This document shows positions 9,641-62,849 of a stretch of DNA of 64,000 nt, one piece after another. Origin of the DNA: Octopus vulgaris (lineage: Eukaryota); NCBI GenBank assembly GCA_951406725.2, contig OX597815.1, positions 133,548,001 through 133,612,000 on the forward strand, given 5' to 3'. The translations under genes were made by a program, and so were the position numbers. The notes beneath the pieces are model-generated. The model had not been told where the DNA came from. It worked only from the letters and a program-made list of their open reading frames with translations, and searched no databases. The number at the start of each line of letters is the position of its first letter. Position 1 is the first letter of the stretch.

Positions 9641-9684
9641 ATCATATATCAGAGTATGATGAATATTATTACTGCAGTGACTTG

Positions 9685-10050
9685 CAACAATAACAGCTCT
9701 TTTGAGAGGTTACACTTTCCGCTTATGATGTTGTGAGCGAGAATGAGATCACCACGGCGTCGTCGTTTTTTGAGAGAATAAAGGTTGAGCGTCTTCAGCC
9801 TTTCTTCATAAGACAATTGCTTGAGACCAAGAACCAAGCAGGTAGCCAGCTTCTGGACTCTTTCGAGATGATGTATGTCTTTGAGGAGATAAGGAGAAGA
9901 GGCTTGAATCCCGTACCCCAATATGGGTCTCACCAGTGTGACATAGAGCAGTAGGAATACGGCTGCTGTGAGCATTCCGAATGACTGTCGAATCAAAAAC
10001 AGAACTCCACGTGCTTTGTTGGCAGCATCGACACATTGGGCCGAAGGCGA
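9685..10050 (-). mobile_element. CR1-clade LINE ORF2 C-terminal fragment
   Basis: ORF 9649..9996 reads LYVTLVRPILGYG...LERVQKLAT...LSYEERLKTLNLYSLKKRRRRGDLI, the typical CR1 post-RT region. Confidence 0.85.
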
Positions 10051-10149
10051 AAAGGAAACAGCATAAAATATTCATCAGAATTATAGAAGCTTGTTGGATT
10101 GTAAAAAAAAATTTGGTATACACAAATGTAATAGTATTAAATTAAAAGC

Positions 10150-10790
10150 ATTATCTATGTATCATATTAAATATCTGTGCACTGTTAGAAAGCATAATGC
10201 TGTGGATGATGTTGATCTTGCTTTGATGTATATTGTGTGACTGGTAGCAGCCAGTTAGTGCCACCAGTCAAAGTATTTAGATTGGAATCTGATAACAGAG
10301 ATCTAGTTTTGTAGTCAGTTCAGTGTTACCTCACTTTCCAGTGTTTCATGATGATGAAAAGAAAATTACTTCAAAATGTATACATCCATCAGTTCAAACC
10401 GCACTGGTGTGTTTACACCTTTTTGTCGACAGTATGAATTTTTCTCCATGACAAAATGTAGTGAATGACTCTTACAGATTTGAATATGTCTCAGACATAT
10501 TTGAATTGGTAACAAGTTCATAGGAAAGAATCGCAAGATGGATTCTTCAAGCCAAGCCAACAAGTAGGAGACTTGTGGGTGGCCAAGAATGAGATGTCTG
10601 AATATGCATAGTCTCAGTTGGTTGCTCTTGGGAATCCAGCTGGAAAATCTAATGATGGTTGCCCTATGGGGCAGATGCTTGAAGACCCTACTGTCACAAG
10701 ATTCCTCAGGAATAGTAGGCAAAGATGGATGAACCCTCATATTTCCAATGAAGTACACTGCCTGTGTGATTCAATGAATTTTGAAAGCAG
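10150..10790 (-). mobile_element. Possible highly decayed Penelope-like RT relic
   Basis: Weak frame-broken motifs only (e.g. FELMDVYILK*FSF resembling L-x-EL-xxx-IL-xxN-xF). Confidence 0.3.
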
Positions 10791-12525: not shown

Positions 12526-13516
12526 TACTATCATTCATGCATATTAACATTATATATCCAACAAAGCATCTTCACCACATTTCTTACCCACTTTTACACA
12601 TTCTCAGTATTCTGCACCTATATTTCAGTATCATGCAACATACCATTTCATATGCAAGCATCATGCAATCTGCTCTCCACTCTTGAATAAAACACTTGTC
12701 CTAGGTGACTGAAATTGAAACCACATGATTGGGAAGTGAACTCCTTAACCACTCAACTATGTCTGCATGTCTCTAATAAGTTTTGGTTACATTTTTGATA
12801 AAAAATGTTTTAGGGTTTGGAAATGTGATTCTATTTTCTATGTATAACCTGAAACCATTAATTTCATGTGGTTCTAATTTCGTTTCTTTCTTCTGTACTG
12901 CTACATTTACTGGCTACTAAATAATAATCAGATTCATTGCTTCTTTAGTTTTATCATCACGCTCCACATGGTCTAATAGAATTACTACTTACTCTGCTAT
13001 TAGGTAGATTAAGAGCAAAAAATAATCCTTTTTTCATTGTGTTTGAACCTGTTACCTAATTATTCAGCCACTTCATCTTTATGGGTTTTAGAATAAACTG
13101 GAAAATATTGGTCTTGCCTACAAAATCAACATCTTGGACATTTTTCCCTTTCATTAAGAATAATATGTGGTATGCAGTTATTTGCACAATACACCCCCAA
13201 AGGATGTTCAAATATAAGAAAAGTGTATTTGTTCCATAAGATGACTAAAATAGTAAGTTGTTTACTAAAACTCTATATACATTTACTTAACAACTTTCTG
13301 GAATGTTGTGGTGGTAATATTATGAAATAGAATAATTATATTCTTCTTATGGAAATATCAGTCTTTTGAGGCATAGAAAATTTAAGTTAGCAAGATGTTA
13401 GGTATTTGCTTTTATATTAGAGTATATAAAGAAATGATATTTCTGAAATTTCAAACTGTTATTGAAAATTTGAGCCATTTTGGTTTAGTGTTTCTTAACC
13501 ATATTATAATAATAAG

Positions 13517-13923
13517 TGGTTGTGTGGTAAGAAGTTTGCTTCTCAACCACATGGTTTTGGGTTCAAGCCCCACTGGACAAGTTTTTTTTTCTACCATAGC
13601 CTCAAGCCAACCAAAACCTCCGTGGATTCAGTAGAATCTGCACAGAAGAAGCACGTTGTATATATGTGTGTGCGTGTGTGTTACTGTCTTTTTGTCTTGA
13701 CATTGTTTGATAGTTGTGAATGTGTGTCACCATCAGGCAAGGGATGTCCTTTGTTTCTTATCTTCTGTGAAAACATGTTTGGTCATAAGGAAACATTACC
13801 TTGATAATGAAACAGGTAAGGGTTGGCAATAGGAAGGGCATCTGGCTGTAGAAAATCTAACTCAACAAATTACATTGAACTTATGCAAGCATGGAAAAGT
13901 AGGCGTTAAAATGATGATGATGA
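13517..13923 (+). mobile_element. SINE family A2
   Basis: Head 'gtggttgtgtggtaagaagtttgct', tail 'gcatggaaaagtaggcgttaaaatgatgatgatg'. Confidence 0.85.
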
Positions 13924-15249: not shown

Positions 15250-16020
15250 GAATTATAATGTTAATCATATAGTAAGAGACTAACAATGATAATGTTGATG
15301 ATAGAGTATGAAACTCATTGATAATGTTAATCATGTAGTCTAGATAGGCAATGATAATGTTGATAATATAGCTGTGACTGACAATGATAATGTTGGTATG
15401 GTTGTGTCTGATGTTGATAATAGAGTTGAGAGTGATATTGATGATGTTGAAGATATAGTTGAAATGGATTGATAATGTTGCTGATATGGCTGAAATGGAT
15501 TGATAATGATGATGAAAATGTTGATAATACAGATGTGACTGACATTAATAATGTATTGTTTGGACTGATGTTGATAATACAGTTCAGATTGACATTGATA
15601 GTGTTGATGAGATAAGATGATACTGACATCGATAATGTTAATAATATAAATGAGACTGATGTTGATAATGTTGGTAATATAGTTGAGATAGGCATTGATA
15701 ATATTGATGATATGGTCGGAACTGTTATGGAGGATGTTGATGTATAGATGAGACTGACAGTGGTGATGTTGATTGTATGGTTAGGGCTGACATTGATAAT
15801 ATTGAAGGTACAGCTGAGTCTGATGTTGATAATACAGTTGAGACATTGATAATGTTGATTATATAATGAAATTGACATGGATAATGTCAATATAAATGAA
15901 ACTGGTATTGATAGTATTGATGATATAGATAACATTGTTATTGATAATACTGACAATATGATGAGGCTAACATTAATAATGCTGATAATATAAATGGCAC
16001 TAATGTTGATAATGTAGATG
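15250..16020. repeat. Degenerate ~33-bp minisatellite (consensus ~GTTGATAATATAGTTGAGACTGACATTGATAAT)
   Basis: About 20 diverged units with recurring 'gataatgttgat' and 'gactgacattgata'; it produces the low-complexity ORF 15327..15956. Confidence 0.85.
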
Positions 16021-17766: not shown

Positions 17767-17983
17767 AGTAGTGAACTGGCAGAATCATTTGCACACTGGG
17801 CAAAATGCTTAGCAACATTTTGTCTGTCTTTACGTTCTGGGTTCAAATTCGATCAAGGTCGACTTTGCCTTTTGTCCTTTCAAGGTTGATAAAATAAGTA
17901 CCAGCTGAGCACTGGGCTTGATGTAATTGACTTTCTCCCTTCCCTAAAATTGCTAGCCTTGTGCCAAAATTTGAAACCAATAT
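17767..17983 (+). mobile_element. SINE family B (Meta-domain-like)
   Basis: 'gaactggcagaatc...gggttcaaattc...ggtcgactttgcctttt...gataaaataagtaccag'. Confidence 0.85.
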
Positions 17984-18264: not shown

Positions 18265-18795
18265 GGAGTAGATGGATAAATTGACAGAATCATTAGAATG
18301 TCAGACAAAGTGCTTCATGGTATTTGTTCTGATTCTTTACACTCTGAGTTCAAATCCTGCCAAGTTCAATTTTGCTTTCATCCCTTCAGGGCCAGTAAAA
18401 TGAAATGCTCCAGCATAAGGTCTTGTCCTTGTGGTGTGATGGCTTTGGTGCCTCAAACACCTTGAGAGCTATGCGAGTGGAGTACAAGTTTCTAGTAGGG
18501 TTCCCCACGATGGACAAGTAAAAAAAGATAGGAACCAGACCAATACTCACCACCCTTTCACAGAAGTTTAAAAAATGGGTTTTCATAGGGCCAACATCCC
18601 TGCCTAGAAGCATCAGTGACTCTTCAAAACCAAGACCTGTGAGAGGAATAGACAGCCCAGATTGGAGAAGAGTGAAGAAAAGTCATCGATAGCCTGCTCT
18701 CCACAGGGAGTGAAAGACTTAAGTAAAATAAAATAAAGTACCAGACAAGTACTGGGACTGATTTAATTGACTTCTGCATTTGTTAGAAATAAATA
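18265..18795 (+). mobile_element. SINE family B interrupted by a ~320-bp RTE-like insert (~18408-18725)
   Basis: The SINE breaks after 'gggccagtaaaatgaaa' and resumes at 'taaaataaagtaccag'; the insert ends in 'gcctgctctccacagggagtgaaagacttaagtaa', an RTE-type 3' end. Confidence 0.6.
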
Positions 18796-18878
18796 TTAAT
18801 TATACAATGCATCTATTGGTTAAAGTGGTAAATTACTCCCATCATCTGTTACCTGTTTACCGGTATTAAAGGGTGGGT

Positions 18879-19302
18879 ATGGCTTTCTTACAGGTTCAAA
18901 TATGTCCCGAGCATATTTGAACTGGTGATAACCTTGTATTTATGCACATAACCGCATAGTGCCGCTACCCCATAATTTGTTTGCAGTGAGCTGCTGATTA
19001 GTGCTACTAGTCACTGTATGATGACAGGAATATTGTAAGAGAGACAATGTCTCTTATCAGCTCGCAGTACATCCTGGCTGGTTTCTGTGACTGAAGAGGA
19101 AATAACTGCTCCAAAATGCTTGCATTTCACAGTCTGGGTAGGTGGCACTGCAAGCTGTGTTTTTGTGTATTTACATCATTTGTCTACAACAGGAAAGTGT
19201 TTCCATGACAAAACAGTGTGAATGGCTTTCTTACCGGTTCAAATATACCCCAAGCATATTTGAACTGGTAACAACATTGTATTTATACACATCACTGCTT
19301 AG
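18879..19302 (+). mobile_element. Retrozyme/Penelope-pLTR-like unit: 343-bp period, 81-bp direct repeats, internal hammerhead
   Basis: 18879-18959 and 19222-19302 align without gaps (11 mismatches by my count); hammerhead fold at 19085-19132. Confidence 0.65.
19085..19132 (+). ncRNA. Type I hammerhead ribozyme, probably inactivated (G12>A)
   Basis: Stem I ctgtga/tcacag; core CTGAAGA; stem II gga/tcc; AAAA in place of GAAA; stem III atgc-tt-gcat; U-H triplet ATT. Confidence 0.7.
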
Positions 19303-19344
19303 AGACAGGTATGTCCCCTGCATCTGTCTTCAGCTGAGTGATCC

Positions 19345-19612
19345 TAATCTTGCAGGCCCATAAGTGCTAGTGCCACATAAAAAGTACCTCTGCTGGTGCC
19401 ACATAAAAAGCACCTGTGTCAGTGTCACTTAACCCCACCCCATGCTGGTACTGTGCAAAAGCACCCAGTACACTCTGTGAAGTAGTTGGCATTAGGAAGG
19501 GCATCCAGCTGTAGAAACCATGTGAAAACAAACATAAAGCCCAGGCAGCTCCTGTCAAACCATCCAACCCATATCAGCATGGAAAATGGATGTTAGATGA
19601 TGTTGATGATCA
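19345..19612 (+). mobile_element. RTE-tail element (family D)
   Basis: 'gctggtgccacataaaaagcacc...ttggcattaggaagggcatccagctgtagaaacc...gcatggaaaatggatgttagatgatg'. Confidence 0.8.
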
Positions 19613-20202: not shown

Positions 20203-20432
20203 AGTAAAATGAGCAAAAAAGAAAAAGAACATTGACATATTTGTTACAAGTTTTATATATTTAGAAAAACAAAACACATGTAAAGTTAATGTTCTCAGAG
20301 ATGCCATCTGCATATAAATTGACAGTTAAGTGTCGGTGGACATATCATCTCATAAAAATCAAATTGTTCTGAATTGTCTCTTGTACTTGTTGAAACTTAT
20401 TGAGCACTTATCACTTATATATATATATTATG

Positions 20433-20599
20433 TGTTTATAACTGAGCCACATTGTACCCTTATGGATTTCATGTTTATGACTAAGCCAAATTTTGCCCTT
20501 ATAAATTTCATGTTTACAACTGTGCCAAATTGCACCCATAGACATGATATATTTATAACTGAGCCAGATTGCTTCCATAGACATTATACGTTTATAACC
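20433..20599. repeat. 39-bp minisatellite, ~4.3 units
   Basis: Units start at 20433, 20472, 20511, 20550 and 20589 ('t(g/a)tttataactgagcca.att'). Confidence 0.85.
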
Positions 20600-33567: not shown

Positions 33568-34326
33568 TTAATCAAAGTATGCACCTAAATTATCAACACA
33601 ATTTTGCCATTTTATCAATAGCTTATTTATGTTGGCAGCTAAGAATTCTGGAGAGCAAGAGGTGATGGAATCATGAAAGGCTGTTTTTGCATCTTCAGAT
33701 TTGAAGTCTTTTCTTTGCAAAAAGTTGTCTAATGCCTGGAAATTGTGATAATCAGTTGGTGCAAGGTCTGGTGTTTATGGTGGATGACAAAGTACTTCTG
33801 TTTCTGTCACTTGAGCTCAGTTTCTGTCACTTGAGCTCAGCTTCTGTCACTTGAGTAGCGTTCTTTGTGCAACATGTGGTCAAGCATTGTCTTGCAAGAG
33901 AATTGACCTGTCTCTATTGACCAATCTTGGTTGTTTAATTGCAATTTCACTCATCATTTCATCCAATTGGTTGATGTATACATCCACTGTAATTGACTTA
34001 CCAGGTCCCATGAAGCTGTAGTGGACGACACCAGTATTGGACCACCAAACAGACACCATTAGCTTCTGCTAACTCACGTGTAGTTTGAGATGTATCTGCT
34101 TTTACCGTTTACAGCTCATCATTATCCACCTTGTTCTCAGGTCTACTTTGGGGCTGATTTTCAAGAGTAAAGTCACCAGACAGGAACTTCTCAAACCATC
34201 GATGTACAGTGCGTTATTTGTCATATCTTCACCAAACAGTTCATTGATGTTTCAAGCTGTTTAGGATGCATTGGTTCCACAATGGAACTCATATTCATAA
34301 ACAACATGAATTTTTGATCTATCCAT
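33568..34326 (-). pseudogene. Mariner transposase pseudogene
   Basis: MDRSKIHVVYEYEF...NINELFGE...RWFEKF...VDNDEL; then SVWWSNTGVVHY, LLQDNA*PH and HPP*TPDLAPTDYH, with stops, frameshifts and an internal deletion. Confidence 0.9.
33801..33855. repeat. 20-bp unit repeated ~2.75 times inside the transposase relic
   Basis: 'tttctgtcacttgagctcag' repeated. Confidence 0.9.
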
Positions 34327-42550: not shown

Positions 42551-42829
42551 CAGATGTTCATTTGTTTAATATGTGTCTGTTTTCCAATGACAACATGGGT
42601 TGGACAAATATATTTTGAGGCTGCATTTTATATTCAGATGCCCCTCCTGCTGTCAACCTTTAAGGGATTTCTGTATATTCCACTGGCATTTGAAAGCACA
42701 GTTGGTAATGTCAACAAAGAATGTAAACCATTACAAAACTGTTTCACTCAGGCAGTGACCAGCAAAGTCATGGAGCATCAACATTAGAGCACAAACACAC
42801 ATGTATGATATACATATGGCATAGTGTGA

Positions 42830-42906
42830 GTGTATGTATGTATGTATATATATGTATATATATATGTATGTATATATATGTATATATATATGTATGTATA
42901 TATATG

Positions 42907-42945
<39 letters not shown>

Positions 42946-43226
42946 GTATATATATATGTATGTGTATGTATGTATGTATGTTTATATATGTATGTATATG
43001 TATGTGTATGTATGTATGTTTATATATGTATGTATATGTATATATATGTATGTATGTTTATATATGTATGTATATGTATATATATGTATGTATATGTATA
43101 TATATGTATATATGTATATGTATGTATATATATATATGTATATATATGTATGTATGTATATATATGTATGTATGTATATATATGTATGTATGTATATATA
43201 AATATGTATGTATATATATATATGTG

Positions 43227-43257
<31 letters not shown>

Positions 43258-43305
43258 GTATATATATGTATGTATGTATATATATATATGTATATATATG
43301 TATGT

Positions 43306-43336
<31 letters not shown>

Positions 43337-43735
43337 TATATATGTATGTATATATGTATATGTATATATATGTATGTATATATGTATATGTATGTATATA
43401 TGTATATGTATATATATGTATGTATATATGTATATATATGTATATATGTATATATATGTATGTATATATGTATATGTATATATATGTATATGTATATATA
43501 TGTATATGTATATATATGTATGTATATATATGTATATGTATATATATGTATGTATATATATGTATATGTATATATATGTATGTATATATGTATATGTATA
43601 TATATATGGATATATATGTATATGTATATATATATGGATATATATGTATATGTATATATATATAGATATATATGTATGTATATATATATGTATATATATA
43701 TATATAAATATATATGTGTCTGTATATATGTATGT
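42830..43735. repeat. ~900-bp compound (TA)/(TATG)/(TATATG) microsatellite
   Basis: Directly visible; source of the long Y/I/M/C/V ORFs. Confidence 0.97.
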
Positions 43736-45214
43736 CAGGTTTCCATACAATTTCCAGTTACTATCTCCACACACAATGCAATTGTCAACCTGGAACTATA
43801 GTTGAAGACATTTGCCCTGGATATCGTGAAGTGAGGGCGGGATATCGAAACCACATGGTTATAGTGTGAACTCTGTATCTACAGAACGATGCCTACAAAC
43901 ACCCATCCCAACACATACATATGCACACAAATTGATAGAAGCTTCTAAACTACAGTGTAGAAATGTTAGGGAAGATGTAAAATGTAGGTTTTCACACATT
44001 TGTAGCCTTACATTAAAAAGTAGATATTGTGTCTGGGCAACATGCTTTTCACTTTCTGATCAGGAAAAGGAGTGTGACCTGACTAGTTGCAGTATTTTTA
44101 TACCACTTTCTCAGAGATCAGTTCCTCATTTTTCCTGACCACTGTGATAATAGTAGTTTGTAGTTATTTAGTTTACACAAATTTGGTTTGAACTAAAATG
44201 ATCTACTAAATTTATTGTGGAAATGACCATTATCATCATCATCATCATCATCAACATTTAACTTCCATACTCCAAGGATTGGACAGTGTGCCAGGATCTG
44301 ATGGGCTCAAGGACTGCACTGTATTCCAGTGTTTGCTTTGGAATCGTGTCTATGGCTGAATGTCCTGATTAATACCAGATCCTTTACAATGTGTACTGGT
44401 TGCTTTTTTTGTTGTTGTTTTTTTTTTGTTTTGTGCCACCAGTTCTAGTGAGGTTAGCATGTAGCTTATGACACTACAGACCCGAAGTGGTTTGATAAAT
44501 AAACTGAAAGAGTCAATTTCAAAAATATCCATGCAAAGGAAACCTTTCAGGGCACTTAAATGTTTCTTGCCACTATTTATTTCTTTAGCTGGAAAGGAAA
44601 GGGACAGGTTCATATGAAATCACCCTAAGAACCTGTTGACCATGAGGGGTTGATTATAAAGCAACTGGAACATACAAAGGAAAGAAATCAGGTTCATATT
44701 AAAGAAAATAGGCATAAGGCATATGTTTTTACCTTATGATAACTATCCTGGGACATCTAGATATATCTGTGATTACTTAGATATATCAGCTGGTACAAAA
44801 AGATACAGGTAAAATCTTGCAGTAAATAGTAGTCAACCACGAGGAGTTTAATGTAAAGTGACTGGAATATTCAAGGATAATGAAGACAGTGAAAAAAATC
44901 CTGCTTACTGAAGTAATTAAAATACTTCAGAGTATTCTACTAGAAAATATATTAAGCTAGAAGACTTCAAATACTTTAGAGTGATTTATATGGTATCTTG
45001 ACACATAGAGGTTGCTCAAGGCATATCTTAATTTGTTTGATTAATGGTCAACAATTAGTATGTGAATATATGTTAAAATATAGCATATAAAGGTAATCAT
45101 AAACTATTCCTAACAACGGTGAATTCATTGCCATTTCAAAGAGCTTCTGGAAAGAAACTATAATTGTTAGATTTACTCAAAGACAGTAAACAAAAACAAA
45201 GGAATATTATATCC

Positions 45215-58061: not shown

Positions 58062-59770
58062 AAAACCATGCTAATAGTAAGTACGGCCCTGCTCAATCTG
58101 TAGAAAAGGCATAGGTAGAAACTCTATAAGATGTACCCAGTGTAAGCTATGGGGCACACAAGAGGTACAGCAATATCAAAGGAAGGCTAACTGGTAAGAT
58201 TTGGTTTTTGCGTGTGGCAGATGCTCAGGAGCAATAAACACTGAAAATGTGCAGAGAACAACTTCTGCCACATTCAAGGGAGAAAAACTAGAAGTAGTTG
58301 ATAGTTTCCATTACTTTGGTGACCAAGTCAGTAGTTGGGGTGGGTGCTCTGAAAGTGTAGCTGCTAGAATAAGAATAGCCTGGGCAAAGTTCAGAGAGCT
58401 CCTACTTCTGCTGGTGACAAAGGGCCTCTTGCTCAGAGTAAAAAGTAGACTGTATGACGCATGTGTACGAACAGCCATGCTACATAGCAGTGAAACATGG
58501 GCTGTGACTGCTGAGGCCATATATAAGCTTGCAAGGAACGAAGCCAGTATGTTCTGCTGGATGTGTAATATCAGTGTGCATACTCAACAGAGTGTTAGTG
58601 CCCTGAGAGAAAGGGTGGACCTAAGAAGCATCAGATGTGGTGTGCAAGAGAGATGACTGCGCTGGTATGGTCATTTGGCGAGAATGGATGTGGATAGCTG
58701 TGTGAAAAAGTGCCACACCCTAGCAGTTGAGGGAACCTGTGGAAGTGGTAGACCCAGGAAGACCTGGGATGAGGTGGTGAAGCATAACCTTCAAACATTG
58801 GGCCTCACCGAGGCAATGACTAGTGACTGGGACCTCTGGAAATATGCTGTGCTTGAGAAGACTTGGCAAGCGCAAGTGTGACCATAACCTTGTGGCCTAT
58901 GCTAGGGATATAACCAGTCCACTTATGCGTGCCTTGAGAGAATGAACCTAAGAAGCATCAGATGTGGTGTGCAAGAGAGATGACTGTGCTGGTATGGTCA
59001 TGTGGTGAGAATGAATGAGGATAGCTGTGTGAAAAAGTGTCACACCCTAGTGATGTGACACTTTTTCACACAGGGATGAGGTGGTGAAGCATGACCTTTG
59101 GACATTAGGTCTCACCGAGGCAATGACTAGTGACCGAGACCTTTGGAAATATGCTGTGCTTGAGAAGACCTGGCAAGCCAAGTGAGACTATAACCCGTGG
59201 CCAATGCCAGTGGTGTAACAATCCCACTTATGTGTAGTTTTCCTTCATTAGACACTAAACTCTGCTTGCAAAGACCTGTTGATCAAATTCGATGACAGCA
59301 CTTCATGACTGGCAGCTGTGCTAGTGGAGCACTAAGAACACCATCCGAGCGTAATTGTTGTCAGTGCCGCTGAGATGCTCCTGTGCCAGTGACACGTAAA
59401 AAGCACCATTCGAGCATGATCGTTACCAGCACCGCCTTACTGGTACTTGTGCTGGTGGTACGTGAAAAACAACATTCGAGCGAGGTCGTTGCCAGTGTCG
59501 CTGGACTGGCTCCTGTGCAGGTGGCACGTAAAAAACACCATTTGAGCGTGGCCATTATCAGTACTGCTTGACTGGTCCTCATGCCGGTGGCATGTAAAAG
59601 CACCCACTACACTCTTGGAGTAGTTGTCGTTAGGAAGGGCATCCAGCTGTAGAAATTCTGCCAGATCAGATTGGAGCCTGGTGTAGCCATCTGGCTTGCC
59701 AGTCCTCAGTCAAACTATCCAACCCATGACAGCATGGAAAGCAGTGATTAAATGATGATGATGATGATGA
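58062..59770 (+). mobile_element. RTE LINE 3' portion with Cys/His motif, internal ~331-bp duplication and full 3' UTR
   Basis: ORFs 58201..58656 (LEVVDSFHYFGDQVS..RIRIAWAKFRELL..ETWAV) and 58675..58881 (GRPRKTWDEVV); 58598-58933 recurs at 58929-59236; (GAT)n tail. Confidence 0.93.
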
Positions 59771-62182: not shown

Positions 62183-62849
62183 TATCTTTCTCTTTTGTTT
62201 GTCTATATTTTTTGTTTCATATAAAATCACCCAAAAGAAATTCTTCAATGATTTCTCATTCCATTTTAATATTTTTATAACCGAGTTTCTCAAAACAAAG
62301 CTATAAAGGCTGTTAGGGTCCATTGAGTTTTAAATGGAGGCAAATATGAGTACTAAGATAGGTAAATGTTTATTGAAAAACAACAATTTTTACTGATCAG
62401 GATTGGAACTTGTTAGATTAGTTCCAAGCAATGAAACTCCCTTGAATGAGAAATTGGATAGAATGTAGGTAATCAAAAGAGTGTAATGTAGTTAACATTT
62501 TTCTTAAATTTTTCAGTTGATATATTAAAGGTAAAGAAATAAAAAAATAAATTTAAAAAAGCCCCCCCCCCCCCCCAACAATCTTGGACAGGAAGTTGGT
62601 ACTAAATAGAATCAGTGTAATTGAAGGAACAGTTGGTTCAGTCTATTTGAACAAGGGGTCACAGAGATTATGCATCAGTGAATTTTTTAAGTTTAATACT
62701 TTCCCTGCCATGAAAATCATGGCAGCTAATATACTATAAAATGAAATATTAGTTGTATATCTGAATAAAACATTTTTTTAACTAGGAGCACATTTTTTAT
62801 GTGAGATTATTACCCCTTTGCTATATCCTTCAACCCCTAAATCTGTTAG

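Follow-up and report, generated by a model that had tools for sequence, protein, structure and literature searches.

Among described systems, the metazoan non-LTR retrozymes come closest to the locus analyzed here. They are tandem units of 150 to 450 bp with type I hammerheads that give rise to monomers and circles, and they are probably moved by Penelope-like elements (PMC7229834). Known units measure 220 to 240 nt in coral, 350 to 390 nt in mussel and 330 or 350 nt in axolotl (Cervera and de la Pena 2020, PMC7229834), so that the kind is already known from molluscs (the mussel) and from many other animals. If a circle served as template, reverse transcriptase would produce cDNA longer than one unit, and the review that makes this point states that metazoan retrozymes have no conserved motif indicative of their partner enzyme (PMC7761336).

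Type I hammerheads are also carried by the pseudo-LTRs (pLTRs) of Penelope elements, where most copies are single motifs lacking an open reading frame (ORF) (PMC4209133). These pLTR hammerheads are typically minimal, with a helix II of more than 4 bp, a shorter helix I, an absent or tiny helix III and an extra base after A9, and they flank an ORF for a reverse transcriptase (RT) with a GIY-YIG endonuclease; their helix III is palindromic and suited to folding as a dimer (Cervera and de la Pena 2014, PMC4209133). The canonical metazoan hammerhead has a helix I of 6 bp and a helix II of 4 bp (PMC4209133; PMC7761336). Animal retrozymes have been argued to derive from Penelope pLTRs (Li, Clavereau and Pollet 2026, bioRxiv 10.64898/2026.07.22.740005), and Penelope-like elements are abundant in octopus (PMC8967140). 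The literature that we searched, which omits most subscription papers, held no report of a cephalopod hammerhead or retrozyme. Cephalopods are not mentioned in the main text of PMC7229834 (searched for octopus; its supplement may list some), in the searched passages of PMC7761336, PMC6155905 and PMC10886601, or in one of the two supplementary files of PMC4209133, and the main text of the 2026 curated repeat annotation of Octopus vulgaris does not mention ribozymes (PMC13282606).

Anatomy of the insert

In the 64-kb stretch of Octopus vulgaris DNA that we analyzed (the window), an 81-nt block recurs without gaps at an offset of 343 nt; 70 of its 81 positions are identical, and identity drops to background on either side. 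This bears out the direct repeat of about 86% identity at a 343-bp offset described in the original prediction, and its reading as about 1.2 monomers is matched by a measured length of 1.24 units and by a period of 340 to 343 nt in the joints of other contigs. The insert consists of the following parts, X1 being one of the public sequencing runs described below.

18879..19302, + strand: non-coding insert, probable retrozyme copy (424 bases, 1.24 units)
18879..18959, + strand: left terminal redundancy, the first 81 nt of the 1.24-unit insert (70/81 identical to 19222-19302)
19222..19302, + strand: right terminal redundancy (70/81 identical to 18879-18959)
18960..19302, + strand: one full 343-nt unit, non-coding (40.8% GC; CpG observed/expected 0.21)
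18969..19073, + strand: variable middle segment (X1 depth 460-1,540; 89 other letters in one joint)
18890..18926, + strand: hairpin copy A (15 of 16 stem positions paired; one A-G mismatch)
19233..19269, + strand: hairpin copy B (15 of 16 positions paired; deepest-covered part of the unit)

At 343 nt and less than 50% GC, the unit lies within the range of non-LTR retrozymes (about 150 to 450 nt). It was not called by Tandem Repeats Finder, and no convincing target-site duplication (more than 4 bp sought) lies flush with the insert ends. The right end abuts another repeat, multicopy and distinct from the unit, that starts at about 19305, and loose ends occur before 19305 in four of four runs. 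A longer insert, reaching back to about 18842, was proposed by nhmmer and rejected after an anchored test gave no significance (6.9% of 2,000 random flanks did equally well). The folding z-score of the unit is -3.6 to -3.8; as 25 random segments of the window included 3 with lower scores, folding stability was dropped as support for the unit. The 5' arm of the hairpin has what we take to be a B-box-like look; as a tRNA module it is unsupported, with 0 genes reported by ARAGORN.

The window is repeat-rich, and no host exon was found in it by Pfam on 150 of the 183 distant frames (33 in repeats or beyond 61.2 kb being left out). The sole Pfam find among these 150 is a mariner-type transposase fragment at 33883-34068 on the - strand (PF01359, E 1.6e-15). 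A reverse-transcriptase-like fragment at 58198-58653 on the + strand has 11 protein matches, of which the 4 with an organism name are all from Octopus bimaculoides, at 69 to 82% identity to the proteins of that species, in agreement with an octopus host. Degenerate minisatellite arrays of 31 to 33 bp occupy 15251-16019, a 39-bp minisatellite of about 4 copies lies at 20421-20598, and a low-complexity repeat of about 1 kb at 42727-43805 produces long spurious open frames. Short interspersed repeat fragments, among which related pairs were seen, flank the insert (17774-17933, 18279-18400, 18731-18773 and 19305-19600) and resemble octopus SINEs.

The hammerhead

Between the two redundant ends, every element of a hammerhead is found where the original prediction had placed it, in type I order with an open stem I.

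19073..19142, + strand: type I hammerhead, including the stem I extension and an internal loop (from sequence and descriptor scan)
19085..19132, + strand: hammerhead core with stems I to III, the sole strict descriptor match in 64 kb
19085-19090/19127-19132, + strand: stem I, 6 bp
19091-19097, + strand: CTGAAGA core
19098-19100/19110-19112, + strand: stem II, 3 bp
19113-19116, + strand: AAAA, with A for G12
19116-19119/19122-19125, + strand: stem III, 2-nt loop
19125 and 19126, + strand: U16.1 and U17
19073-19081/19134-19142, + strand: stem I extension (5 Watson-Crick pairs, 3 wobbles, 1 G-G mismatch)
19113..19113, + strand: A replacing the general base G12, 3' of C in a CpG-decay context
19126..19127, + strand: site of predicted cleavage, following position 17 (U in this copy; C in 81-93% of depth)

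When both strands of the window were scanned, a strict descriptor (one core mismatch, stem I of at least 6, stem II of at least 3 and stem III of at least 4 bp) matched this motif and nothing else. Simulated windows of matched composition, 40 in number, gave 0 matches, and with a looser descriptor the rate was 0.05 per simulated window. By descriptor, the motif shares its core order and three-stem junction with the Rfam hammerhead families. The original prediction had proposed a check against Rfam, and here it was let down: no Rfam hammerhead model matched the motif at E ≤ 10, which counts against the reading that we prefer. At gathering level, Rfam returned nothing over the whole 64 kb, and only weak unrelated matches lay near the motifs. 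ViennaRNA rejects the 2-nt loop of stem III, so that stem III of a monomer would have no more than 3 bp, closed by a loop of 4 nt. In the minimum-energy fold, stem I and its extension form, and hammerhead stems II and III do not. When a degenerate core motif was scanned for elsewhere, viral sequences and prokaryote genomes gave 0 matches and metagenomes gave 1, which we discarded as accidental: it lies in coding DNA that looks bacterial and lacks a stem I.

The core of this copy is not intact, having A at 19113 instead of G12. G12 is described as invariant, and a G12A change slows cleavage approximately 10^5- to 10^6-fold and leaves the fold intact (PMC2553840). In addition to A12, the locus has drifted in its core to U17 and to a broken fourth pair of stem II. 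We therefore predict from its sequence that the locus is inactive, its catalytic base having been lost. Since it also holds one hammerhead instead of two consecutive ones, it should release no monomer or circle; the locus is an old remnant, a fossil, and not a candidate source of circles.

A second copy in the window

The window contains another copy of the unit, overlooked in the original prediction, with the following features.

10233..10515, + strand: second, more diverged copy of sub-unit length (aligns to 18977-19274; nhmmer E 1.1e-17)
10349..10391, + strand: type I hammerhead in the second copy, decayed (C17; 3 core mismatches, A12 among them)
10474..10510, + strand: hairpin copy C (from sequence)

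BLAST recovers 10407-10515 at 74% identity (E 1e-12), and the 5' part, without the hairpin, aligns with a score of 66, the best of 300 simulated sequences reaching 36. Its A12, at 10373, again follows C. A relaxed scan of the 64 kb (up to 3 core mismatches) gave 3 matches, namely, both hammerheads and an A/T run at 62514, the expectation being 0.125 per window (8 simulations). Between the two copies, all 12 stem pairs compared are Watson-Crick in both, and 5 of them are double-compensatory changes (three in stem I, one in stem II and one in stem III), with none broken. The stems thus covary, as the original prediction had anticipated, in a comparison of two copies whose register was chosen by structure. 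When sites were simulated to change independently at 30%, such covariation arose in 1 of 400,000 trials, a probability that is optimistic because MAFFT places the 5' half of the second copy in another register.

Both copies were searched for coding neighbors. No RT or GIY-YIG match to Pfam was obtained in any of the 102 frames of at least 35 codons around them, and at these two copies the expectation that no Penelope ORF adjoins the unit therefore holds. The 134-codon frame that overlaps the second copy was also compared with protein sequences, in a weak search that gave no match among longer proteins. A 140-codon frame on the - strand (9652-10071), which lies some 160 bp before the start of the second copy, has no Pfam match and reads like the C-terminal portion of a LINE protein of the CR1/L2 type. 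Directly after the hairpin of the second copy, fairly GC-rich sequence (10516-10790) has no Pfam or protein match.

The family in public sequencing runs

We aligned contigs of 4 of 24 public runs, carrying four organism labels (A, B, C and E), to 18780-19380 at 80% likeness. The run sample was kept free of possible RNA runs, and the runs include X1, X4, X5 and X20. The search for runs with the sequence listed no RNA run among its holders, a result without bearing on expression. In all four runs contigs fell on the unit (1,373, 1,581, 1,022 and 1,696). With 1,022 to 1,696 contigs per run and a second copy in the window, the unit is not single-copy, a finding on which the original prediction depended. 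Two thirds of the aligned contigs are less than 90% alike, which argues that the relatives are many and old.

Depth is at the single-copy level up to 18863 and then rises, with several pieces starting at 18879. Relative to the flank, it reaches about 20 to 40 times in the middle, 150 to 320 times over the hammerhead and 600 to 1,600 times over the hairpin, ratios of summed contig depth that are not to be read as copy numbers; in X1, depth over the hammerhead is 13,000 to 13,700. The maxima over the ribozyme and the hairpin region show that these are the conserved modules, and the middle segment (18969-19073) is probably subfamily specific. The hairpin region (19200-19302) is 4 to 5 times deeper than the hammerhead and may be part of additional subfamilies or of a partner element. 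This excess is not explained by a pure single-unit retrozyme and counts against our preferred reading.

The majority letters of the family shift the motif toward a better hammerhead. A majority G at 19101 (77 to 88% of depth) pairs with C19109 and extends stem II to 4 bp, a majority A at 19108 (90 to 94%) makes loop II end in A, and the majority C at 19126 gives C17. Outside the core, a majority T at 19077 (54 to 68%) turns the G-G mismatch of the stem I extension into a wobble, and a majority G at 19247 (64 to 74%) closes the A-C mismatch of hairpin copy B. G12 itself, whose restoration the original prediction had set as a test, was in no sequence seen: both copies in the window show A instead, and the best 40 of 260 differences, nine of which were computed, with shares of at least 53%, do not include 19113. 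This also counts against our reading. At other sites where a purine follows C, the shares are 57 to 59% (G at 19241) and 70 to 83% (A at 18909), and such values indicate that CpG decay could keep a G at 19113 out of these best 40.

Joints, arrangement and age

The tandem arrangement put forward in the original prediction recurs at other loci. Among the 15 of 151 joints listed, 19302 to 18967 (+7), 19302 to 18973 (+13) and 19301 to 18974 (+15) give a head-to-tail period of 343 nt, and 19291 to 18987 (+35) gives 340 nt; 12 of the 34 strings between joints were listed as well. One of the listed joints has a period of 342 nt with 89 different letters in the middle; there are shorter forms as well. 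A contig of 491 nt extends over more than a single unit, in a phase differing from that of the locus, and 153 X1 contigs pass 19302 with letters like those from 18960 onward, which means that 19302 is not a family end. Neither end of the insert is a family end. Among 32 of 6,083 pieces listed, none carries two hammerheads, in contigs that are short; this counts against the retrozyme reading. Five of the 15 listed joints switch strand, and some of these may stem from the palindromic hairpin. Between 38 and 53% of contigs run into unlike sequence, mostly not displayed, so that an attached ORF elsewhere is possible. The best 24 of 1,265 loose ends read as the unit itself or the neighboring repeat, except for a single end of low agreement at 19274.

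The left junction is spanned by contigs of X4 (7 differences), X5 (3 differences) and X20 (6 differences). It is common to the four organism labels; the insertion thus predates their split and is old. The two ends differ at 11 of 81 sites, corresponding to a drift of 0.075 ± 0.023 each (Jukes-Cantor, with identity at insertion assumed). On a published scale in which a divergence of 0.065 equals 18 My and one of 0.09 equals 25 My (PMC13282606), we infer an insertion age of very roughly 20 My, with a wide error.

Discussion

Considering these data together, we think it probable that the insert is an old, 1.24-unit copy from a many-copy family of approximately 343-nt hammerhead elements, that this family is likely a non-LTR retrozyme probably mobilized by Penelope-like elements, and that the copy itself is inactive. 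In such a scenario, a source array with at least two intact units would have been transcribed, and each type I hammerhead would have cut after position 17, releasing a unit-length RNA of 343 nt that a host ligase may have circularized. A Penelope-type reverse transcriptase would then have run more than once round this template, or through a multimer, and insertion of the longer-than-unit cDNA would have left the 81-nt redundancy behind, after which the copy would have drifted. A circular template and a multimeric or partial-tandem Penelope-type transcript would fit the insert equally well. Speculatively, the conserved hairpin is a candidate for the site that such a Penelope-type enzyme recognizes.

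Like the metazoan retrozymes of PMC7229834, the octopus family has a non-coding unit of a few hundred nucleotides with GC below 50%, head-to-tail order, many copies, one type I hammerhead with canonical helices per unit and a Penelope-bearing host. Unlike them, the locus comprises 1.24 units with a single A12 hammerhead, and its 16-bp hairpin is strongly conserved and shared more widely than the hammerhead. The dispersed monomers and short multimers, a unit length in range and the co-occurrence with Penelope also agree with the retrozymes of Li et al., whose "active" class, in contrast, requires two consecutive complete hammerheads; our locus lacks these, and no mollusc was sampled there. With the hammerheads of Penelope pLTRs (PMC4209133), the octopus motif has in common its type I topology, the palindromic helix III and the partial tandems. 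It differs from them in a helix I of 6 bp plus an extension and a helix II of 4 bp (family majority), without the extra base and with no ORF seen. Judged by these predicted helices, the octopus hammerhead is canonical rather than minimal.

These resemblances bring up an unlikely yet serious alternative, in which the locus was left by an autonomous Penelope-like element that had been truncated at its 5' end. The unit would be the pLTR of this element, and no free-standing retrozyme or circle would exist. The 81-nt redundancy would then be the usual partial-tandem signature of Penelope insertion, known to yield partial tandems and inversions (bioRxiv 10.1101/2021.04.23.441226; PMC11167929), and the strand switches among the listed joints would follow. 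The abundance of octopus Penelope families, some of them young (PMC13282606), the small palindromic helix III of some invertebrate Penelope elements (PMC4209133), the ORF-less single motifs of most pLTR hammerhead copies and an uneven depth that fits modules common to several families all suit such a remnant. The helices, however, are canonical in size and not minimal, and the closed period of 340 to 343 nt at several loci leaves no space for an ORF inside the unit. Nor do the neighbors speak for it: apart from the low-agreement end at 19274, the best 24 of 1,265 loose ends lead into the unit or a neighboring repeat, and neither copy in the window has an RT or endonuclease match beside it (by Pfam; the protein search was weak). 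As Li et al. derive retrozymes from pLTRs, the two readings are close kin and the contrast between them is soft.

The missing G12 allows another account, which we regard as improbable, namely, that A12 was inherited in the family and the fold was kept as a very slow or noncatalytic structure, e.g., a protein-binding signal. Both copies in the window have A12 and nevertheless covary in their stems, 19113 is missing from the best 40 of 260 differences, and the fold is intact under G12A (PMC2553840). Yet 19113 follows C in a CpG-depleted unit (observed/expected 0.21), a decayed CpG can miss the best 40, as 19241 and 18909 illustrate, G12 is described as invariant (PMC2553840) and the family majority moves toward better catalysis at position 17. 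It would be similarly surprising if an A12-by-descent hammerhead and the widely shared 16-bp hairpin together served a Penelope-type reverse transcriptase as a structural signal. The least credible of these accounts makes the locus a local duplication, or else a DNA repeat, satellite-like or dispersed, that resembles a hammerhead by chance. The absence of an Rfam match, the imperfect core and a minimum-energy fold without stems II and III would suit it, but a motif with 0 matches in 40 simulated windows, covarying stems in a second copy, depth that peaks on the motif and majority letters that repair it largely refute it.

In conclusion, an old retrozyme copy remains the reading that we favor, and the family would extend non-LTR retrozymes to cephalopods, a modest gain given that such elements have already been described in molluscs and many other animals. 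If A12 by descent were true, a retrozyme-like element would have spread without working self-cleavage. The modular conservation is the more useful lead, with the hairpin as a concrete candidate for comparison with octopus Penelope pLTRs.
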